Positions 1,985-10,652 of a stretch of DNA of 64,000 bases are shown here, in pieces. Made by a program: the position numbers and the translations under genes. Below the pieces are notes generated by a model that ran no database searches, had not been told where the DNA came from, and saw only the letters and a list, made by a program, of their open reading frames with translations. The stretch is from positions 23,986-87,985 of the forward strand of contig JALVOT010000014.1 of NCBI GenBank assembly GCA_027026255.1, given 5' to 3'. Numbering within the stretch: the stretch's first letter is position 1; every line of letters begins with the position of its first letter. The stretch comes from a candidate division WOR-3 bacterium (lineage in GTDB: Bacteria; Hydrothermota; Tepidihabitantia; SM23-42).

Positions 1985-2774
1985 TATTAAATGGAACTGC
2001 GGGGATTAAACCATTCCCGGCAAGAATTTTCTGGCCCTTTGGGGATAAGACATAATCAATGAATTTTTTGACTTCACCTTTTGGTTCCTCAAGAAGTAAT
2101 AATAAAAATGGTCGACAGAATTTATAATGGTGGGAGATAAGATTTTCCGGGGTGGGTTTTATGCCATCAATGGCGATAGCCTTTTCCCGTTCATCAACCA
2201 GACCTGCAGATATATATCCGATACCGTTTGGTGTTGTGGCGATAATCTCTCTCACCGAGCCGTTAGAGTCCTGGACAAGGCAGCGGTCACTTATTTCTTC
2301 TCCCTCCATTATCAGTTCCTCAAATGAACCCCGGGTGCCGGAACCTTCTTCACGGGTAACCGGGATTATTATCTCATCCTTTCCTCCGACATCTTTCCAG
2401 TTTCTTATTTTCCCGGTAAAGATACCCCGAATCTGTTCAACCGTTAGATTATCCACGGGATTGCTCGGATGGACTATGACTGCAACGCCATCCATTGCGA
2501 TTAATATCTGTTTAAGCCGTTTCTCATCGCCAATCAGATGTCTTGATGAGGTGCCGATATTGCAGATGCGATTGAATGTCGCCTGGATTCCTGCGGTTGA
2601 ACCACCACCCTGGACAATGATTGCGATGCCGGGATGTTCACGCATATAATTGTCTGCGACCTGTTCAATAAACGGCTGGACCGAGGTTGAACCGGCGATA
2701 ATAATGCCGGAGCCTGCCTTTTTCTGGGTGCAGGTAAGCATAGTAAAGGTTAAAAGCATCAGAAAATATCGCAC
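1974..2774 (-). CDS. pstS: Phosphate-binding protein PstS (probable lipoprotein, GTG start)
   Basis: 266 aa with signal peptide and periplasmic-binding-protein motifs (SGTRGSFEE); first gene of the pst operon. Confidence 0.75.
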   Translation of the reverse strand: MRYFLMLLTFTMLTCTQKKAGSGIIIAGSTSVQPFIEQVADNYMREHPGIAIIVQGGGSTAGIQATFNRICNIGTSSRHLIGDEKRLKQILIAMDGVAVIVHPSNPVDNLTVEQIRGIFTGKIRNWKDVGGKDEIIIPVTREEGSGTRGSFEELIMEGEEISDRCLVQDSNGSVREIIATTPNGIGYISAGLVDEREKAIAIDGIKPTPENLISHHYKFCRPFLLLLLEEPKGEVKKFIDYVLSPKGQKILAGNGLIPAVPFNNER

Positions 2775-2783
2775 GGTCAGGTT

Positions 2784-2811
2784 ATTATAATCAGAATAAC
2801 CAAATCGTCAA
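2784..2811 (-). promoter_or_regulatory. sigma70-type promoter for pstSCAB: TTGACG, 16 bp, TATAAT, 9 nt before the GTG start
   Basis: Read directly on the minus strand: -35 at 2806-2811, -10 at 2784-2789. Confidence 0.5.
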
Positions 2812-2850
2812 TAAAATAATTCATCACTCAGGTAAATGATTCGATAACCT

Positions 2851-3033
2851 ATGATTTTTTCTAAACTTCTTAACATCAATCTTTATTCTGGATTTAAAAA
2901 TCGCCATTCAGGAGGGGTGGCGAGTTGTGGTTCAAGTGTTGAGGAGGCATTTAAAAATCTGAAAGAGGCAGTGGAGCTTTATCTTGAAAATGCCCGTGAA
3001 TTAGGATTACTGGAGCAAATTGAAGCTGAATGA
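2851..3033 (+). CDS. HicB-like (UPF0150) antitoxin-family small protein, no HicA partner
   Basis: C-terminal stretch SCGSSVEEAFKNLKEAVELYLENARELGL resembles the HicB/UPF0150 motif (GC.SQG.TLEEAL.NAKEA.ELYLE). No toxin ORF adjacent. Confidence 0.35.
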   Translation: MIFSKLLNINLYSGFKNRHSGGVASCGSSVEEAFKNLKEAVELYLENARELGLLEQIEAE

Positions 3034-3078
3034 TTTTTCAAGGGGAAATTTCATAATTGTATTATTAAAATATATGAA

Positions 3079-3513
3079 TTATTTGCCAAAGTCAATTTTT
3101 ATATTTATATCAGAAGGCACACGAAATCGTAATAAAATTTTAGAATCACCACTTAAGCGTTGTTTTTCAGCTCTAAATAGTATATTGAGATGTATAGAAT
3201 TATCATTTGTTTTTTCTGCTTGATTAGTAGTATTAGAAGAAAAATGATGTAGGTGTGCTTTTATATTGAGATATCCAGAAAAAGTGTTGTTCAATTTATC
3301 GATTGTTAAATAGCCAATAGCATCGGTTGTTCCTTCTGACAAGGAATATAGAAAACCATTAGCTTTATGGTAAAGAAATGATTTTATGGAGTCAGATTCA
3401 ATATTTACTGAGTCCATCAGGCAAGTATTAAATTTAATACATAAGAAATAATTATGTTGTATAACATCAAGATCATACATACTTGGTGATGCATAGTATC
3501 CATAGATTACCAA
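3079..3513 (-). CDS. Hypothetical protein, possibly an orphan toxin-tip remnant (TTG start)
   Basis: 144 aa ORF lying directly 3' of a degenerate Rhs core-end relic (3522-3545) but out of frame with it. No recognisable motif. Confidence 0.3.
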   Translation of the reverse strand: MVIYGYYASPSMYDLDVIQHNYFLCIKFNTCLMDSVNIESDSIKSFLYHKANGFLYSLSEGTTDAIGYLTIDKLNNTFSGYLNIKAHLHHFSSNTTNQAEKTNDNSIHLNILFRAEKQRLSGDSKILLRFRVPSDINIKIDFGK

Positions 3514-3521
3514 TACAGAGT

Positions 3522-3545
3522 AGTTTCCTTAAGGGGTTATTGATA
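3522..3545 (-). repeat. Degenerate relic of the Rhs core 3' end (encodes ..NNPLR..)
   Basis: ccttaaggggttattga matches the block encoding VNNPLRF at 7555-7571 and 5624-5640. Confidence 0.4.
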
Positions 3546-3562
3546 CCTTTAGTAACATAGTA

Positions 3563-4024
3563 TCAAATTCCTACAACCAAAAGCTGCAGGAATTTTGGCC
3601 CCATCCATAGAGCGAACCAGGTATTATCACCCTTAATTCGCAACCAGAACCACATAAGTAGAATTACCGCTATTGAACCAAGTAAACAATACCAGCCACT
3701 GATGGTTAAAATTAAACGTAATAACAATGGCGGTTCGAATTTCTTGCTGGCCTTACGAAGTTTAAGAGAAAATATAAAGATGAATATTCCGATCAGAACC
3801 AGAGGTGTTAAACCGATACGCAAAGGGGTAGTATCAGCAACCGTTGGGAATAAATCTGCATACCGTGACCAAGCATCCCAGAGTCTTAATACATATTCAA
3901 AAATGGTATTGAAAATAAAACGTGCGAGTATAGAGTATGGGAAATAGAAAGCAAAAGCACTAAAGAGAATTATAACTGCCCCTAAGAGAAATTTTTTAGT
4001 GAAGAAGTCTTTTATTTGCAGCAT
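3563..4024 (-). CDS. Small polytopic membrane protein, candidate Rhs-toxin immunity protein (paralogue of 4556-5050)
   Basis: 153 aa with about 4 TM segments; shares blocks with the 164-aa protein (PLRIGLTPLVLIGI vs SLRIALTPLLLIGI; ISGWYCLLGSIAVILLMWF vs ICGWYCLVMTSIVILAMWF). Lies just 3' of a cassette-junction relic carrying an intact promoter. Confidence 0.5.
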   Translation of the reverse strand: MLQIKDFFTKKFLLGAVIILFSAFAFYFPYSILARFIFNTIFEYVLRLWDAWSRYADLFPTVADTTPLRIGLTPLVLIGIFIFIFSLKLRKASKKFEPPLLLRLILTISGWYCLLGSIAVILLMWFWLRIKGDNTWFALWMGPKFLQLLVVGI

Positions 4025-4112
4025 TAATGCTCCTATTTATAAAAGTGTGAATTGACCCATTTTTTAGCAAAATAATATTCATCTTAGAGCGAATTTTCAC
4101 ATATTTCCTATC

Positions 4113-4225
4113 TGATAAGTAGTTTATCCCATTTTCGTCAAGTCTGCTGCCCGTAGTCTTTAATTTCTTCTCCATCTTTCCTTATTGATAATTATAGCAA
4201 AATTATCAAGGATTTCAAGATTTTT
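4113..4225 (-). repeat. Degenerate relic of an orphan Rhs-CT cassette 5' junction (leader plus first ~25 codons, no toxin domain)
   Basis: About 75-80% identical by eye to 5733-5840. Minus strand reads MEKKLKTTGSRLDENGINYLSDRKY, compare orphan cassette MKNELKTFSKELDENNLNYFCQRYY. Confidence 0.55.
4191..4218 (-). promoter_or_regulatory. Conserved cassette promoter (TTGAAA, 16 bp, TATAAT, 15-nt leader) in the relic cassette
   Basis: Same box sequence and spacing as the orphan-cassette promoter at 5803-5830. Confidence 0.5.
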
Positions 4226-4247
4226 TTTGATTCTTACGCATTTTTAT

Positions 4248-4532
4248 TTAGAATAAGAATATGTTGTAAATGTCTGTATGAATGCGGTTTAGCAATGTCC
4301 TTATGGATAAAACAATGCCTGTCAATCCAAATATGAAGTTTATTAATCTAACATAAGATAATTTTCTTTTGTCTTTATATGTCAGACCATACATTACTGC
4401 AATTATACTGAAAGGAATGCCTAACACAGGCTGGGTAGATAAAATCAAACCCATAATTACCCATACAAATTTATCAAAAATATTACTACTTGAATAATTA
4501 GTATCCATATTTTTTTTCTTGTTGATGAACAT
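4248..4532 (-). CDS. Small membrane protein (2-3 TM), function unknown
   Basis: 94 aa hydrophobic ORF between the two immunity-candidate paralogues. Confidence 0.4.
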   Translation of the reverse strand: MFINKKKNMDTNYSSSNIFDKFVWVIMGLILSTQPVLGIPFSIIAVMYGLTYKDKRKLSYVRLINFIFGLTGIVLSIRTLLNRIHTDIYNIFLF

Positions 4533-4555
4533 TATATATTAAATACATAATTATC

Positions 4556-5050
4556 TTAAGGCCCAGCTGGCATATAAATTGGCGCTCCGCTTAAATAGCC
4601 ATTCAGAAAATGGCCATAAACCATTATAAAAACGCTTGATTTATCAGGCCAAGTAAATGCACGAATTTGTATATCAAACCACATCGCAAGAATTACTATG
4701 CTTGTCATAACTAAACAATACCAACCACAAATCAATGAAATCCATCTAAGATTTATTAAACGATTAACTTTGCATATTGAAGATAATTTCTGTAACAAAA
4801 GAAAAAGTAGTATACCAATGAGTAGTAAAGGTGTAAGAGCGATACGTAAAGAATTTATACTGTTGGGAAGTGCTGATGTTGACAACCAGAACCTGGTTGT
4901 ATAATTCCATATAGTAACAAAGATGAACTTGGCTAAAATAGGGTATGGCAAATACCCGGCGATAAAAGCAATTATTATTGTAATTATGCCGATTGCAGCT
5001 CTATTCAGAAAAAGCTTATGTTTTGCGACTTCACCCAGTGCATTTATCAT
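4556..5050 (-). CDS. Small polytopic membrane protein, candidate immunity protein for the orphan Rhs toxin
   Basis: 164 aa; start overlaps the stop of the orphan toxin ORF (5047-5050), the usual toxin-immunity arrangement; paralogue of 3563-4024. Confidence 0.5.
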   Translation of the reverse strand: MINALGEVAKHKLFLNRAAIGIITIIIAFIAGYLPYPILAKFIFVTIWNYTTRFWLSTSALPNSINSLRIALTPLLLIGILLFLLLQKLSSICKVNRLINLRWISLICGWYCLVMTSIVILAMWFDIQIRAFTWPDKSSVFIMVYGHFLNGYLSGAPIYMPAGP

Positions 5051-5787
5051 TTTCTATAGAAATAAAAATAAACCCATCTATTTGCGAAGAGATGGCCTGA
5101 ATTATTTGCTTTTCTGTGAATTATGTTCCACCAAGATAGGTCAGTCCTTGTCCAACCGTGGGCACGTAGCCAAATAATTTCAGCAAATTCATGGGCAAAA
5201 GATTTTCGTAGACTCCAAGTCTTATTCCATTGCATTTTATTAATTTTAAACTCCCATATTGTCAAAATCTCATTTTTTGGATTACCTGCAACAGATTTTC
5301 CCAGGTGTTCAACAATCATATATTCAAATTTAGACACTTCAGCCCAATAATCTATTGTGGCAAGAAATCCAGAATTTTCTTTTAACCAAGATATTGCATT
5401 AAGAATATCATCTAAGGTTATTTTTCCCCCCGGATGATAACTTTCCCAATCATCATATGTAATTTGATCCAGCATCTTTTCAAGACTGCGCATTGCGTTC
5501 ATTAACTTACTTTGTCTTCTCAGTTGTTCCATATGAATAAATGTCCACCATGAGGGGTCGCCAGCGTCTACGGGACTTTCTTTTTTAGATTCCATCATTC
5601 TTTCACCAGTAGGGTCGGTAAACCTTAAGGGGTTATTGACACAATAGGCATAGGGAGATGATGCAGGGGAATTCTCAGGGTCCAACCTCAAAAACCTCCC
5701 AATCTCTGCCTCATAATACCGCTGGCAGAAGTAGTTAAGATTGTTTTCATCAAGTTCCTTGCTAAAGGTCTTTAATTCATTCTTCAT
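5047..5787 (-). CDS. Orphan Rhs C-terminal toxin cassette (Rhs core tail plus unrecognised toxin domain)
   Basis: 246 aa. N-terminus MKNELKTFSKELDENNLNYFCQRYYEAEIGRFLRLDP...YAYCVNNPLRFTDPTG duplicates the end of the full-length Rhs core (FDENNLNYFCQRYYEAEIGRFLSLDP...YAYCVNNPLRFTDPLG), then diverges completely. Confidence 0.65.
   Translation of the reverse strand: MKNELKTFSKELDENNLNYFCQRYYEAEIGRFLRLDPENSPASSPYAYCVNNPLRFTDPTGERMMESKKESPVDAGDPSWWTFIHMEQLRRQSKLMNAMRSLEKMLDQITYDDWESYHPGGKITLDDILNAISWLKENSGFLATIDYWAEVSKFEYMIVEHLGKSVAGNPKNEILTIWEFKINKMQWNKTWSLRKSFAHEFAEIIWLRAHGWTRTDLSWWNIIHRKANNSGHLFANRWVYFYFYRK
5612..5762 (-). repeat. Direct repeat of the Rhs core 3' end (orphan copy)
   Basis: 41-bp block 5612-5652 is identical to 7547-7587; about 70-bp block 5690-5762 is near-identical to 7640-7712. 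The spacer between blocks differs. Confidence 0.8.
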
Positions 5788-5802
5788 TTTTCCTTCTTGA
5801 TA

Positions 5803-5830
5803 ATTATAGTAAAATCAAGTGATTTTTCAA
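5803..5830 (-). promoter_or_regulatory. Internal promoter of the orphan toxin cassette (TTGAAA, 16 bp, TATAAT, 15-nt leader with AAGGA)
   Basis: Read on minus strand: -35 at 5825-5830, -10 at 5803-5808, ATG at 5785-5787. Confidence 0.5.
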
Positions 5831-5955
5831 GAAGATATTTCATCGCCCGGTATTTTATTTTTCTGGAAAAGTTGTGTATTAACAGAGGAAAATAATTGTG
5901 GAATCGAAACAAGTTGAAGGAAAATAAATATAAGTTAATTATTCCACAGCGTTTG

Positions 5956-6747
5956 TTAATGAAACACACCTCGTATATTCAATATTACCGATATTAATAC
6001 GAAAATATTAAAGCTCACAAAATAACCAATCGGTAATAACAAAGAATGTCGTTTCCAATATAAGTAAATTACGAGCAGTCCATTAAATAAAATCCAGATT
6101 GTGTTAATGATACTAAACTGATTGTGCGAGAATATTATCCCATGGCACAATGTGAAAATTATGGTAGTAACTATTGCACCAGTTTTAATACCCATCTTTT
6201 TAGCAAAAGCAGGGAATGCAAATCCTATGAAAAATATAGATTCTCCAATTGGTCCTATGATACTTACAATAATTGCGCGTGAGAAGTTTATGTAATAATT
6301 AATTTGATTGGAGGCAATAAACTTTGGTACTTTTGGTAAAATATTGTTGCCTGTAATTATGATTGGTAGTAATAATATAAGTTTTAAACATAAAGCCAGG
6401 ATAAATCCAGTAAAAAAATAAATTAGCCACCTATCGGATCGTAAACCTAAAGTTCTTAGTGATCCAAATTTTCTCAGTTTTATCCATAATATAGGCACAA
6501 ATGTGTAGAGAAGTTGATTAATCATTAAGCATAATATAACTATATACCAACGTTTTTTAAGATAAGTTAATAATATTGAATAAAGTTCTGAATTTTTTTC
6601 GAAATGTGAGAAATCTATATGTGTAGGTGAAAAGATTTTAAATGAAATTATGACCAAACTCAAATATATTAAAATAATAAGAAAAAAGGTCACGACGACA
6701 TCAGTTATACCCCATTTTACATTAAGTATCTCATTAGATTTGTTCAT
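5956..6747 (-). CDS. Polytopic membrane protein with degenerate CPBP/Abi-like motifs, candidate immunity protein for the full-length Rhs toxin
   Basis: 263 aa, about 7-8 TM. GPIGESIFFIGF and FTLCHG...SHNQF loosely match CPBP motifs (EExxxR, FxxxH, HxxxN) with catalytic positions substituted. First gene 3' of the Rhs toxin; extremely AT-rich. Confidence 0.4.
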   Translation of the reverse strand: MNKSNEILNVKWGITDVVVTFFLIILIYLSLVIISFKIFSPTHIDFSHFEKNSELYSILLTYLKKRWYIVILCLMINQLLYTFVPILWIKLRKFGSLRTLGLRSDRWLIYFFTGFILALCLKLILLLPIIITGNNILPKVPKFIASNQINYYINFSRAIIVSIIGPIGESIFFIGFAFPAFAKKMGIKTGAIVTTIIFTLCHGIIFSHNQFSIINTIWILFNGLLVIYLYWKRHSLLLPIGYFVSFNIFVLISVILNIRGVFH

Positions 6748-6951
6748 ATTTATCTTATGCTGGCAATAATTGTACAGCGATATTTCGATTGAAGAAAATA
6801 ATAATCAATGGTCTTGATACGATATTCGATTTGAGGTTATCTGTAATGAATAATCGAACTTATTCAGAAATTTATAAAAATGCAAACTGTATAGGTGGTA
6901 TCGCATCTGTAGTCCTGGTTAAATATCTATATCTGATGTGATATATAGCCA

Positions 6952-9900
6952 TTAGCTTAAGCCCCTGGGAATAGGAAGAATTTCTTTTTCCTCTTTTTTG
7001 GTGGGTTCAGACGGTTTTCGCCACCAGGCTGGTGGAAACATATTTTTATAGTAATCATCGTTCCACATTTCATCGAGTTCCTCGATTGGTAATTTATTAT
7101 AACCACGAGGAGGATAAACGATATTCTTCGGATGATGTATATTCTCAAAAGCAGGCTGCCTTTCTTTATGTTTTTCTGGTTGAGGTAGATTAGGTTCGTT
7201 CGGATAGAAAGATGATTTGGGGATAATCTGTTCTAATGATTCGATGAAGTTCTCGCCAAGAATTATGTATCCAGACAATTGGAGTATAATACCTACGTAA
7301 TGTGTTATGGGGTGAGGGTACGCTTCAAGCATTACTCCCAAATTAATTAATTCTATTTCAAGCTGTGAGCCTTTCACAGTTTCTAACGCTTGACTGCCCA
7401 AATTTTTTGTTGTATTATAGAACACTTTTATTTTTGTTTCAATATTTGCTTCAGAATTTTCAAAAAATAGATTCAACCCTGATTCATGGCCAATGAATTC
7501 GTAATAATCGTTTGGCGACATAAAGAGAGGTACCTGCAGCCCCAATGGGTCGGTAAACCTTAAGGGGTTATTGACACAATAGGCATAACGGTTCTGGGAT
7601 TGAGGAACTTCAATATAACCACCAAAGGGATCAAGAGACAAAAACCTTCCGATCTCTGCCTCATAATACCGCTGGCAGAAGTAGTTAAGATTGTTTTCAT
7701 CAAATTCCTTGCCGGTGAAGGTATGGGTGTTATCAGCAGTACCTGATTTTGTTATTTCACCGAATGGATAATAATATGCAGTCCAGACCACTGAACCCGA
7801 TTCATCGGTCATCTTCCTTGATGAACCTAAAACATCACAATGATAAAAGGTGGTATCTGCACCATCAATCCTTGCAATATGTAATCCACCGGCATAGACA
7901 TACCTTGCCAGTATTGAACCATCCGGGGAATATTCAATAAGCGGATTTATACCGTCATAAACATAGTAAATCGTATAGTCAGTTGTTGTATTAATTCCGG
8001 ATGTAGTTATCTCACCATAGCCGTTGATTTCACCACCGAATGTTTTATTGGTGCCGGGAAAGACATCAACTGCATTTGAACCACCCTGATGCAGGGTATC
8101 AACATTCACAGGTAAACCAGGGTCAAAGGTTGAGATGGTCCACCGCAGGGGACCATAATGATTTAATAACTGTTTGGAGATCTTTATCTGGATACTGCCA
8201 TCAGGACCAATAATCCGTTCCACTGTCATACCAGAGGGCATTACAGTCTTTGTGCCGTCTGCCCTGTAAAAACCGTATTCTCCATCGTCTATATATAGAC
8301 AGTATTCCCAGGCAGCATTTTTTGGCACCTTTGTCTTCATATCTTCTGGTAAGGTAATTCTACCCGAATTTGGAATCGTGTCAAGGTCTAAGGTGATAAA
8401 GAGCTTTAATCGGCTGACCTGGGCAAAGATATATCGGTTGACGACGGTAAAGATATAATACCGGGCGGTATTTTTTATGTAGACTTTTTCAATATCAAGT
8501 CCTTTATTATATACTGTATCCGGACCGGATGATTTGAATCCTAAGTCGTTTGCTGCATCAGTGAATAGGGTTCTTGAAGTTATCCCTGTGCCGGGAGTTA
8601 ATTTATGATAATGTTTTTTGACCCTGAGGCCGGAACTGTTATAGGCATAATCAATGGTTTCAGGACCTTTTTTATAATAGATTAGCCGATTATTCCAGTC
8701 ATAGGCAAATGAATCGACCAAACTGCCTGAGGAATTGTTGCGTTTAATAATATTACCATTGTCATCATAATAATACTCATAATCTCTGTGGTCGGTTTTT
8801 AGCCGGTTGGTATTTGACCAGTATGAATATGAGTTACCATTTTTTGCAGTGCGGTTTCCTGTTTTGTCATAGCTGAATGATTGGATACCTGCTAATTGGG
8901 TGACCGCGGTGAGTCGATTCAGGGCATCATAGGTAAAGGTCTGGGTGTATCTGCTGTTAAGATAGTCGGTAATTGAATGGATATTGCTGTTATCTTCGTA
9001 AGAATAACCGAGTTTTAGAATATCACCGGTTTTATAAGCCCTCACCAGGATTGGACGAAGCCGGGAATCATAGGTTATTGTATCCACTACCCCGTTATCA
9101 TAACTTAGCTTTACAATCTGACCTGCAGGATTATATTTAAAGGTTGTTAAAAGACCGGGGACGGATTTTATCTGGCCGAGTCTATTGTATCGGTATTTTA
9201 TTTTGTCGTCTGTTGATAAATAGATCAGGATGCACTGGTTCGCATAATTAAAATTATAGGTAAACGATTTTTCACCACTCAGACCTACAATATTAACCCT
9301 TTTGAGTCCTAATCTGCCTCGATCATCATAGTAGTATGTTATTGAATCTATTCCGCAGGTAACAACTTTACTCAGTCGACCCGTAGGATTAGCCAGTTCA
9401 TAAGGAGTTGGTCCTCCGGTCGTAATATCATAGGTCAGTCTGACTTTATCTGCCCAGGTGGAGCCATTATCGGTTGAAAGTTCTATTTTGGTCAAACGGT
9501 TGATATTATCATAGGTATACCGAACCCATCCATTCGGGTCTTTTTTTAGCGTTAAATTTCCCAGGTCATTATATTCATCATAGAGCACATCAACTGGGTT
9601 ACCATTGTAATAATATGAAGATGTTGCATCCGGACCATCCACACCACGCAATCTGCCAAGGGTATCATAATAGTATTTTGTCACCCTCCCTTCGGCATCG
9701 GTCACTTTTGTCAATCTGCCGAGGGTATCATATTGATAACAGGTGCGGTTATTATTGGCATCAATGATTGTATCAATTGCGCCGTAGGCATTATAAATAT
9801 GGATGGTTTTATTACCCTTTTCATCAATGATGGTGTCGGTATTGGCATAGTATTTTACCTGAGAATATTTACCATCAGGATGGGTTATTTTTATAATGCG

Positions 9901-10257
9901 TCCCAGAGCATCATACTCATAGGTGGTAATTTGAGACCAGGAAGGTGAACTATAACTGTATGATGTACCGAAGATTGTATAGGGGTTACAAACTGAATCT
10001 TTTTTACTGTTTTTATTATAAGAAATATTCCGGATAATCGTCCGGGCGTTATCAAAATCAAATTTTTTGGTTTGAATCAGTTTACCAAATCCATCATAGA
10101 AGTTTTTACTTACTATCCAGTATGTAGCCCCAGCTTCGTCGATGAAGTCTATTTTTATCGAATCAATAACTGCAGATGGAATTTCAAAGTCTTTATAGGT
10201 AATTCTCCGGGATGCTGAAGATTCATTGGGCTGGAAGGTTTTTATTAATCGGCTCAT
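6952..10257 (-). CDS. Rhs/YD-repeat protein with C-terminal polymorphic toxin domain of unrecognised family
   Basis: 1101 aa with many YD repeats (YDALGRII, YDTLGRLT, YDALNRLT). Rhs core end FYHCDVLGSSRKM...YAYCVNNPLRFTDPLGLQ, then about 210 aa unique C-terminus ending in a Pro/Lys-rich tail. No signal peptide or PAAR-like N-terminus visible. Confidence 0.85.
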   Translation of the reverse strand: MSRLIKTFQPNESSASRRITYKDFEIPSAVIDSIKIDFIDEAGATYWIVSKNFYDGFGKLIQTKKFDFDNARTIIRNISYNKNSKKDSVCNPYTIFGTSYSYSSPSWSQITTYEYDALGRIIKITHPDGKYSQVKYYANTDTIIDEKGNKTIHIYNAYGAIDTIIDANNNRTCYQYDTLGRLTKVTDAEGRVTKYYYDTLGRLRGVDGPDATSSYYYNGNPVDVLYDEYNDLGNLTLKKDPNGWVRYTYDNINRLTKIELSTDNGSTWADKVRLTYDITTGGPTPYELANPTGRLSKVVTCGIDSITYYYDDRGRLGLKRVNIVGLSGEKSFTYNFNYANQCILIYLSTDDKIKYRYNRLGQIKSVPGLLTTFKYNPAGQIVKLSYDNGVVDTITYDSRLRPILVRAYKTGDILKLGYSYEDNSNIHSITDYLNSRYTQTFTYDALNRLTAVTQLAGIQSFSYDKTGNRTAKNGNSYSYWSNTNRLKTDHRDYEYYYDDNGNIIKRNNSSGSLVDSFAYDWNNRLIYYKKGPETIDYAYNSSGLRVKKHYHKLTPGTGITSRTLFTDAANDLGFKSSGPDTVYNKGLDIEKVYIKNTARYYIFTVVNRYIFAQVSRLKLFITLDLDTIPNSGRITLPEDMKTKVPKNAAWEYCLYIDDGEYGFYRADGTKTVMPSGMTVERIIGPDGSIQIKISKQLLNHYGPLRWTISTFDPGLPVNVDTLHQGGSNAVDVFPGTNKTFGGEINGYGEITTSGINTTTDYTIYYVYDGINPLIEYSPDGSILARYVYAGGLHIARIDGADTTFYHCDVLGSSRKMTDESGSVVWTAYYYPFGEITKSGTADNTHTFTGKEFDENNLNYFCQRYYEAEIGRFLSLDPFGGYIEVPQSQNRYAYCVNNPLRFTDPLGLQVPLFMSPNDYYEFIGHESGLNLFFENSEANIETKIKVFYNTTKNLGSQALETVKGSQLEIELINLGVMLEAYPHPITHYVGIILQLSGYIILGENFIESLEQIIPKSSFYPNEPNLPQPEKHKERQPAFENIHHPKNIVYPPRGYNKLPIEELDEMWNDDYYKNMFPPAWWRKPSEPTKKEEKEILPIPRGLS
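7547..7712 (-). repeat. Rhs core 3'-end segment repeated at 5612-5762 (master copy)
   Basis: See 5612-5762. Confidence 0.8.
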
Positions 10258-10288: not shown

Positions 10289-10464
10289 TGTGTGGGATGT
10301 ACTGAGGGCGATTGGCATTCAAAGTGCAGTAAATATCGTTGTTGATAAGAATTTTGAGGGTAGTATTACAGTTTATCTGGGAAAGGTTACTTCAGAACAG
10401 GGATTGAAGAAGCTGCTTGAGGCAAACGGTTTTCTCCGAAGAAAAAAGAGAATTATTTTTTTGT
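10263..10464 (+). pseudogene. Gene fragment with secretin-N/STN-like motif; no canonical start, runs into stops
   Basis: Frame reads ..NFKDVNVWDVLRAIGIQSAVNIVVDKNFEGSITVYLGKVTSEQGLKKLLEANGFLRRKKRIIFL*, resembling the N-terminal domain motif of secretins and TonB-dependent receptors (DVLRAL...NIVVD...G.VT..L......AL..LL.ANGL). Only about 60 codons. Confidence 0.3.
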
Positions 10465-10652
10465 AAAGAAAAGATTAAAAGAACGATTAAAAAAGTTTAC
10501 AGCCGCTGATGGTAAACTCGGTTTGAATGTGAAGAATGCATCGAGAGATGAAAATTATTTCCGGTATCGGATCGGGGTTTGCATCTGAACTTTCCATCCT
10601 CCAGATTTTGTTTTTTTAACTCAGGATAAAAATTCACTGCTCCACTTATTGC

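Follow-up and report, generated by a model that had tools for sequence, protein, structure and literature searches.

Orphan rhs-CT/rhsI modules are known downstream of main rhs genes in Enterobacteriaceae, with examples in Salmonella LT2, Escherichia coli and Dickeya (PMC3967940, PMC3150448), and in Salmonella the main and the orphan genes alike have internal promoters and toxin-antitoxin-like expression (Starsta et al. 2020, PMC7043789). Arrays of orphan immunity genes, produced by effector displacement, occur within type VI secretion system (T6SS) clusters of Vibrio cholerae (Kirchberger et al. 2017, PMC5361080). The subject here is an Rhs locus in a stretch of 64,000 nt, hereafter the window, from a candidate division WOR-3 bacterium (assembly GCA_027026255.1, contig JALVOT010000014.1, positions 23,986 to 87,985), and in particular the region 3522-4225 of that stretch. 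This region is probably the tail of an Rhs polymorphic-toxin locus with decayed cassettes, one of which, relic 1, would have had its toxin deleted and its immunity gene and promoter retained. Such a pattern is already known in other bacteria, both as a standard Rhs orphan array and as effector loss with immunity retention (PMC3967940, PMC5361080).

As in the enterobacterial modules, a full-length rhs gene in the window is followed by fragments of the core 3′ end with a different toxin and immunity gene, blocks of high identity between orphan and main gene permit a swap of tips, and the tips have a lower GC content than the flanks (0.28-0.37 across 3000-7500 vs 0.42-0.47 in the flanks, where pst and carbamate-kinase genes lie). 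Unlike those modules, the core piece in the window is very short (about 50 codons) and is preceded by a conserved leader of promoter, Shine-Dalgarno (SD) site and ATG that lies outside the core homology; the immunity proteins are polytopic membrane proteins, usually with a small membrane partner, and one cassette toxin appears to have been lost by internal deletion. Of note are the setting in a poorly sampled, uncultivated lineage, toxin and immunity families that have no annotation and the fact that expression signals are preferentially conserved. All relevant genes and relics lie on the minus strand, and those on which the argument turns are the following (aa, amino acids; TM, transmembrane; ORF, open reading frame; UTR, untranslated region):

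6952-10257, minus strand: main rhs gene, 1101 aa, with YD/RHS repeats, an Rhs-associated core domain and its own C-terminal toxin tip.
5803-5830, minus strand: promoter-like site of the orphan cassette, TTGAAA-16-TATAAT, 11/12 match.
5047-5787, minus strand: orphan toxin gene, 246 aa, made of an ATG leader (ATG at 5787), the last 52 Rhs core positions and then the toxin.
4556-5050, minus strand: imm164, putative immunity gene of the orphan toxin, whose start overlaps the toxin stop (ATGA), with 3-4 TM segments and a family found by profile search.
4248-4532, minus strand: small 2-TM partner gene (86-94 aa), the third cassette gene, 58% identical (8e-32) to 1098-1379 of contig L009 and 41% to 606-830 of contig L016.
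4191-4218, minus strand: promoter-like site of relic 1, TTGAAA-16-TATAAT with TG before the -10, 11/12 match.
4101-4190, minus strand: relic 1 5′UTR with AAGGAAA, ATG (4173-4175) and 25 codons (MEKKLKTTGSRLDENGINYLSDRKY) from the leader and Rhs core end.
3996-4175, minus strand: residual 59-codon ORF from the relic ATG, extending 29 nt into the immunity gene.
4033-4083, minus strand: probable 3′-terminal toxin remnant ..DEYYFAKKWVNSHFYK*, about 16 codons, in a frame that differs from that of the leader.
3563-4024, minus strand: imm153, intact immunity-type membrane gene, 153 aa, with 3-4 hydrophobic segments, its toxin lost.

The stretch 4100-4221 is a diverged copy of the orphan 5′ junction at 5712-5833, with 68-71% identity ungapped (71% for 4100-4203 against 5712-5815) and about 80% gapped; the gapped local alignment scores 75, compared with a mean of 20.3, a standard deviation of 3.2 and a maximum of 40 among 1000 composition-matched shuffles. 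A preliminary description of this DNA had recognized such a copy at 4113-4225, a span which proves 67% identical ungapped (76/113). The edges of the block are sharp, because identity drops to background beyond them, to 25% at 4040-4099 on the 3′ side and 42% at 4222-4280 on the 5′ side. The promoter hexamers lie where they had been placed, at 4191-4218; each is 6/6 identical between relic 1 and the orphan cassette, with 7/16 identical positions in the spacer, and both junction sites are among the four best of 58 promoter-like sites within 8 kb. A 30-nt pattern covering the -10, the 5′UTR and the ATG, CTATAATTATCAAnAAGGAAAnATGrAGAA, is found only at the two junctions in the 64 kb, where 0 occurrences are expected, the SD site and the ATG being common to both. 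The ORF running from 4175 to 3996 begins MEKKLKTTGSRLDENGINYLSDRKY, exactly as first read, and aligns gap-free with orphan MKNELKTFSKELDENNLNYFCQRYY and main ..HTFTGKEFDENNLNYFCQRYY until homology stops after codon 25.

The expression signals of relic 1 are conserved better than their surroundings. Between relic 1 and the orphan cassette, the -35, the -10, the 5′UTR with its SD site and the ATG are identical at 28/30 positions, compared with 52/88 for the spacer and codons 2-25 (Fisher p = 2.4e-4). Sigma-70-type sites also precede other genes of the window, such as pstS (TTGACG-16-TATAAT) and a Yip1-type gene (TTGATT-16-TATAAT), and AGGAGG-type ribosome-binding sites are present at several window genes, so that the cassette signals are plausible in this organism. 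An inverted repeat spans the -10 of both cassette promoters, at 4185-4209 and 5796-5819 on the minus strand, with arms TTGATAATT/AATTATCAA (9 bp, 7-nt loop) in relic 1 and CTTGAT/ATCAAG in the orphan; it could be an operator or a product of chance in AT-rich DNA, the chance being roughly estimated by the author at about 0.1.

The body of the relic 1 toxin is gone, as the preliminary description stated, but about 16 codons of the toxin 3′ end, at 4033-4083, survive. This remnant, ..DEYYFAKKWVNSHFYK-stop, resembles the C-termini of the toxin family, which read ..HLFANRWVYFYFYRK-stop in the orphan and ..WYAADWVNQYSWYPWP-stop in contig L012, with a BLOSUM62 score of 41, which 0 of 1000 shuffles and 0 of 188 control chunks attain. 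At the DNA level, neither 4015-4115 nor the 76 nt between the end of the homology at codon 25 and imm153 shows any significant similarity to the orphan toxin or the main tip. As codons of the 5′ end are joined by an out-of-frame remnant of the 3′ end, the toxin gene would have suffered an internal out-of-frame deletion and not complete removal. The remnant stops 8 nt before the ATG of imm153, and an AGGAG at 4030-4034 overlaps that stop. The promoter was earlier said to run straight into the immunity gene; this has to be corrected, given that the 59-codon ORF (without a significant match in the family search), the out-of-frame toxin 3′ end and the separate AGGAG stand in between.

The immunity-type membrane gene at 3563-4024 is, as previously described, an intact ORF of 153 aa. 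Its product is 43% identical to imm164 over 106 aa (E 2e-11) and retains the family residues FPY, LRIxLTP, WYC and MWF; an open frame of this length arises in 0 of 500 shuffles of the region. Relic 1 is devoid of the small 2-TM partner gene that is found in most intact cassettes. Pfam and NCBIfam hold no family for the orphan toxin, for imm153 and imm164 or for a 144-aa ORF further downstream, and a word-indexed search of imm153 and the orphan toxin against an index of 5.8 billion proteins returned only self matches or matches to the end of the Rhs core. When a profile of both immunity paralogues was run against 1.8 billion representatives, six further members of the immunity family came up; a metagenome scan with the two-sequence immunity alignment found nothing, and a scan with a five-sequence alignment found one locus, L017. 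The members in other metagenomic contigs are arranged as follows:

L009, member P0014: the upstream toxin is 40% identical to the orphan toxin (1e-43); the small partner is present, 58% identical to that of the window.
L012 and L013, member P0016: an Rhs core end and homologous toxin lie upstream (7e-48 in L012, 9e-22 in L013); no small partner.
L015, gene at 3555-4010: a homologous toxin lies upstream; a 2-TM gene occupies the partner position, and no similarity to the window's gene was detected.
L015, member P0018: no toxin, only a fragment of about 25 codons; the partner is present and weakly similar only to the small genes of L015 and L016.
L010, L011 and L017, P0015-type members: no toxin, no small partner.

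Members of the immunity family thus come immediately after an orphan-toxin homologue, on its 3′ side, in four independent contigs (L009, L012, L013 and L015), and the family is found without a toxin in three independent settings, the window included; together these arrangements are the best support for an immunity role and for genes that outlive their toxins. That immunity genes outlast their toxins and keep the cassette promoter had been suggested in the preliminary description, and is supported by the layout of relic 1 and, as regards survival without the toxin, by the toxin-less members in L015, L010, L011 and L017. The toxin-less immunity pair of L015 follows a fragment (1722-1790) that resembles the toxin region before the AHE motif, a similarity reached by 0/300 shuffles. 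In L017 the family member (4932-5417) stands alone among defence-type genes (an AAA_15/OLD-like ATPase and a GmrSD-like gene), with no Rhs gene within 5 kb, and has the look of an orphan immunity gene gained by acquisition. Ross et al. reportedly described, in 2019, the acquired interbacterial defence clusters of Bacteroidales. Two reports on these clusters concern acquired orphan immunity genes outside toxin loci (PMC10470768, PMC12247911), and the L017 member, solitary among defence-type genes and far from Rhs, is similar in this respect. In contrast, imm153 resides inside its own Rhs array together with junction and toxin remnants, as a leftover in place and not an acquisition. Its homology to imm164, P0014 and P0016, all of which follow intact toxins, suggests that imm153 is an orphan immunity gene left behind by effector loss.

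The intact orphan cassette provides the yardstick for this decay. Its protein matches Rhs_assc_core over positions 22-75 of 76 (E 4e-13), followed by a toxin of an unannotated family with the pattern A[HS]E[FM]xE...PGHxFA, for which a profile compared with solved structures gave nothing below E = 0.1; a single-sequence structure prediction, with a predicted local distance difference test (pLDDT) score of 36.2, is too poor for a fold search. A motif PxxxxDPxG(L) marks the toxin start, as NNPLRFTDPLGL in the main gene and NNPLRFTDPTGE in the orphan, and beyond it the two sequences are unrelated. The core ends of orphan and main gene share 74 nt at 96% identity (5689-5762 / 7639-7712) and 41 nt at 100% (5612-5652 / 7547-7587), with a divergent stretch between the two blocks, which points to recent gene conversion. 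Homologous recombination through these near-identical blocks could transfer the orphan tip to the main gene; for relic 1, unlike the intact orphan, this route would no longer be available. In L009 and L016 the homologue of the small 2-TM gene likewise comes after the immunity homologue, and the intact cassette is therefore a three-gene unit.

A scheme that accommodates these observations would start from a full-length rhs gene with, downstream of it, an array of C-terminal cassettes that have been displaced or duplicated. An intact cassette of the relevant type is ordered as promoter, SD site with ATG, a short leader, the final ~50 codons of the Rhs core, toxin, 3-4-TM immunity gene and 2-TM partner. 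Relic 1 would be a paralogue of the intact orphan cassette from which a non-homologous internal deletion took nearly the whole toxin ORF, joining 25 codons of the 5′ end out of frame to about 16 of the 3′ end, with imm153 keeping its own AGGAG site and the upstream cassette promoter. A second junction, due to a deletion or an insertion, would have removed the relic 1 partner gene and, from the next cassette, the promoter, the leader and most of the core end; only 20 nt of core end (NNPLR) and one unclassifiable ORF would be left of that cassette. The retained promoter may still transcribe imm153, so that the cell would be protected from relatives deploying the cognate toxin and spared the cost of the toxin; expression of imm153 from the retained promoter would be the most likely present role of relic 1. 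The proposed benefit, protection against kin still using an old effector, is the same as in the V. cholerae model, in which old effectors are likewise lost, the 3′ part of the cluster retains their immunity genes and an effector 3′ end may be carried along with its immunity gene. Unlike those arrays, the platform in the window is Rhs and not a T6SS auxiliary effector, and the relic keeps the cassette promoter and part of the core; in contrast to the long arrays of V. cholerae, the window has only one clear toxin-less immunity gene.

Several points weigh against this account. The toxin remnant is short, and when it is compared with whole toxins, 3 of 300 shuffles reach its score (p about 0.01). 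The contrast between signals and codons may be inflated, because the orphan core-end codons have probably been homogenized with the main gene (96-100% identity), which adds divergence to the coding class. The promoter calls are predictions from consensus matches, and the immunity function is putative, being read from gene order and family association for proteins with no known domain. Lacking its partner gene, imm153 may not be fully functional, though the P0016 members of L012 and L013 are likewise without a partner. Finally, neither relic 1 nor relic 2 turned up in intact form in any collection searched, and the ancestral state is therefore reconstructed, not observed.

The rival that survives best holds that a promoter-bearing cassette was duplicated in tandem and in place and then decayed, the relics recording gene decay and not successive replacement of tips. 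This deserves serious consideration, although it falls somewhat short of being probable. Orphan and relic 1 have in common a leader and promoter that the main gene is without, and both belong to one toxin family, as judged by the 3′ remnant, and to one immunity family; for this reason the serial turnover of toxin tips put forward in the preliminary description is plausible and not established, and duplication followed by decay fits equally well. The three orphan cassettes of contigs L003 and L004 are similarly furnished with one junction repeat that starts at the promoter. Conversely, the immunity paralogues are only 43% identical, against about 70% for the junction DNA, which suggests long divergence or different donors. 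Moreover, the core of relic 1 keeps a Gly codon (KTTGSRLDEN, vs HTFTGKEFDEN in the main gene) that the orphan does not have, so that the two junctions are not simple mutual copies, and relic 2 and the main tip are of unrelated cassette types. The Gly codon and the modest identity of the immunity genes favour separate histories for the orphan cassette and relic 1.

Beyond imm153 the array continues with shorter traces, in which the interpretation as decayed cassettes meets a second rival:

3527-3546, minus strand: relic 2, an Rhs core-end remnant (..I-NNPLR) of 20 nt, with a 17-nt exact match and 19/20 overall.
3079-3513, minus strand: 144-aa ORF (112 aa from the ATG at 3417, the call of the metagenome annotation), in the +1 frame relative to NNPLR.
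3031-3054, minus strand: possible third relic, ATGAAATnTCyyCTTGAAAAATCA, agreeing at 21/24 positions with the -35 flank of the orphan cassette's promoter (5820-5843).

Relic 2 begins 17 nt past the stop of imm153. Its 17-mer, TCAATAACCCCTTAAGG, is found exactly at 3527-3543, 5623-5639 and 7558-7574, that is in relic 2 and in the orphan and main core ends, and is expected 0.02 times at up to 2 mismatches. The NNPLR block had been assigned to 3522-3545; the match is sound, although it covers 3527-3546 and leaves 3522-3526 outside. The core 3′ part is repeated downstream of the main gene in the orphan (two blocks), in relic 1 (25 codons) and in relic 2 (19/20 nt). The NNPLR frame closes 17 codons further on, and the 144-aa ORF (3513 to 3079) is out of that frame, as noted before. 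No stop interrupts the frame of this ORF over 149 codons, counted from the one within the NNPLR block down to 3079; this exceeds the maximum (142) and the 95th percentile (99) of 500 shuffles. Its product is soluble and predicted to be all-beta. The ORF could belong to a third type of cassette as its immunity gene, or else could be what is left of a toxin after a frame shift.

According to the latter alternative, the 144-aa ORF would be an old toxin domain, shifted out of frame by 1 nt at the NNPLR junction, whose immunity gene has been lost; this can be entertained tentatively and is somewhat unlikely. Besides the length of the open frame, it is favoured by the lack of any gene between the ORF and the distal relic at 3031-3054 and by the lack of a convincing SD site before either candidate ATG. 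However, no DPxG motif follows NNPLR in either frame, the 5.8-billion-protein index contains no homologue that would place the ORF with toxins or immunity proteins, and the structure model (pLDDT 44.7) is too poor for fold comparison. A search for a toxin remnant between NNPLR and the 112-aa ORF gave a score that 11 of 300 shuffles reach, which is not significant, and no promoter relic was found for the 144-aa ORF. The site at 3031-3054 comes right behind this ORF, where the array ends distally, and on the other strand a truncated HicB-like ORF adjoins it. Given this position, the site may represent one more junction relic, a truncated third one at the edge of the island, with about 0.2-1 chance matches of this kind expected somewhere in the 7.7-kb region by the author's rough estimate. 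The HicB-like ORF itself (60 aa, 2851-3033, plus strand) has a sub-threshold antitoxin match, E 5e-4 over profile positions 22-52 only, and has the appearance of an antitoxin gene cut short, lying beside pstS where the island ends.

A third alternative regards the orphan cassettes mainly as intracellular modules of the toxin-antitoxin type and not as tips kept silently in reserve, relic 1 being a toxin-less module with a leftover antitoxin that has no present role. It is unlikely. In its favour, the orphan core end and toxin are preceded by an ATG, an SD site and a promoter of consensus type, and in L015 a homologous toxin gene (2748-3558) that is without any Rhs core has its start precisely at the Rhs cleavage motif and a promoter-like site of its own (TTGACA-17-TAGATT). 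Comparison arrays, retrieved by means of the orphan's core end, extend these observations. In L003 and L004 the three orphan cassettes have a common junction repeat (e.g. L004 3482-3517, 7051-7086 and 9966-10001) which starts about 5 nt before TTGACA-17-TACACT and runs through the ATG into the core, the -10 ending 7 nt before the ATG; the architecture is as in the window, the sequence unrelated. In L006 and L007 TTGACG-16-TAGAAT ends 18 nt before the orphan start. Altogether, promoter-like sites occur at most 50 nt before orphan starts in four independent arrays, against a background of 0.3-0.7 per kb per strand, and consensus matches similar to the 11/12 junction sites of the window are present at orphan junctions of three other arrays. 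These promoter-bearing junctions appear to agree with Salmonella, where promoters 89 nt upstream of the PxxxxDPxGL-coding sequence have been shown experimentally to transcribe main and orphan tips with their immunity genes, with toxin-antitoxin-like behaviour (PMC7043789). As in Salmonella, a promoter a short distance upstream of that sequence could transcribe tip and immunity gene independently of rhs. Unlike the Salmonella promoter, which lies inside the conserved core, is common to main and orphan genes and is followed by translation from a weak CTG, the predicted promoter in the window is found outside the core homology and not in the main gene, and it stands before a canonical SD site and ATG. 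The toxin-antitoxin-like alternative leaves unexplained why the expression signals of relic 1 are conserved after loss of the toxin, and a membrane-embedded immunity protein suggests an envelope-acting toxin, with which delivery from outside fits at least as well.

The weakest alternative, chance matches and coincidental hexamers in DNA that is indeed AT-rich and dense in promoter-like sites, is practically inconceivable and was rejected in view of the shuffle controls, the 30-nt pattern, the 17-mer and the expected order and orientation of the matches beside paralogous genes.

The remainder of the locus conforms to an Rhs system. The main protein matches RHS_repeat (3e-36) and RHS (2.5e-11) in a family search and carries a complete Rhs_assc_core (6e-20, residues 829-907, positions 1-76 of 76), its core ending NNPLRFTDPLGL (...YAYCVNNPLRFTDPLGL) before the variable tip. 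No recognized N-terminal trafficking domain was found, only a weak DUF6443 match; secretion genes were not searched for elsewhere in the window. A scan of genome contigs with the main protein gave a single weak, irrelevant match, and Rfam and tRNA scans of the window gave nothing. A second assembly of the locus, an ENA metagenome scaffold (L001), is identical to the window over 14 kb, and hence offers no strain variation to exploit. The gene that follows the main rhs gene is:

5956-6747, minus strand: gene for a CPBP/Rce1-like polytopic membrane protein of 263 aa (PF02517, 4e-10) with 7 hydrophobic segments, putatively the immunity protein to the main tip.

Where an immunity gene for the main Rhs tip would be expected, there is a homologue of intramembrane proteases, and its putative assignment as immunity to that tip is made from position. 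The CPBP/Rce1 family serves as bacteriocin immunity in Gram-positive bacteria. Including it, 3/3 putative immunity genes of the array encode membrane proteins. An 11/12 promoter-like site, TTGAAA-17-TATAAT, is situated inside the main toxin tip (7414-7442, minus strand), upstream of the CPBP-like gene, and could serve the main immunity gene as an internal promoter. At the other end of the rhs gene, head to head with its start, a 58-aa ORF (10290-10466, plus strand) shows a sub-threshold match (E 9e-5) to STN, the secretin/TonB N-terminal domain, and may be a gene fragment.

The findings from the window leave the current picture of Rhs biology unchanged. The decay of a cassette with loss of the toxin and retention of the immunity gene, the favoured account, would provide a dissectable example of a decaying polymorphic-toxin locus, in which the toxin was deleted internally and the immunity gene remains intact along with its ribosome-binding site and the promoter of the cassette, and the same toxin and immunity families meet the same fate in unrelated metagenomes. 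It lends sequence-level support, far from the enterobacterial and Vibrio models, to the notions that immunity outlives toxins and that orphan Rhs cassettes bring their own expression signals. Families without annotation, namely the toxin and the membrane immunity protein with its small partner, can now be defined. In a bolder version, which is quite unlikely as a whole, promoter, start codon and Rhs core end would together form, in this group of uncultivated bacteria, the 5′ boundary of a self-expressing, portable cassette, arrays would gain and lose members by recombination at junction repeats, the promoter would remain under selection after toxin loss, and the cassette would encode a new toxin family with a two-component membrane immunity. 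Were this true, Rhs arrays would be a source of constitutively expressed orphan immunity.

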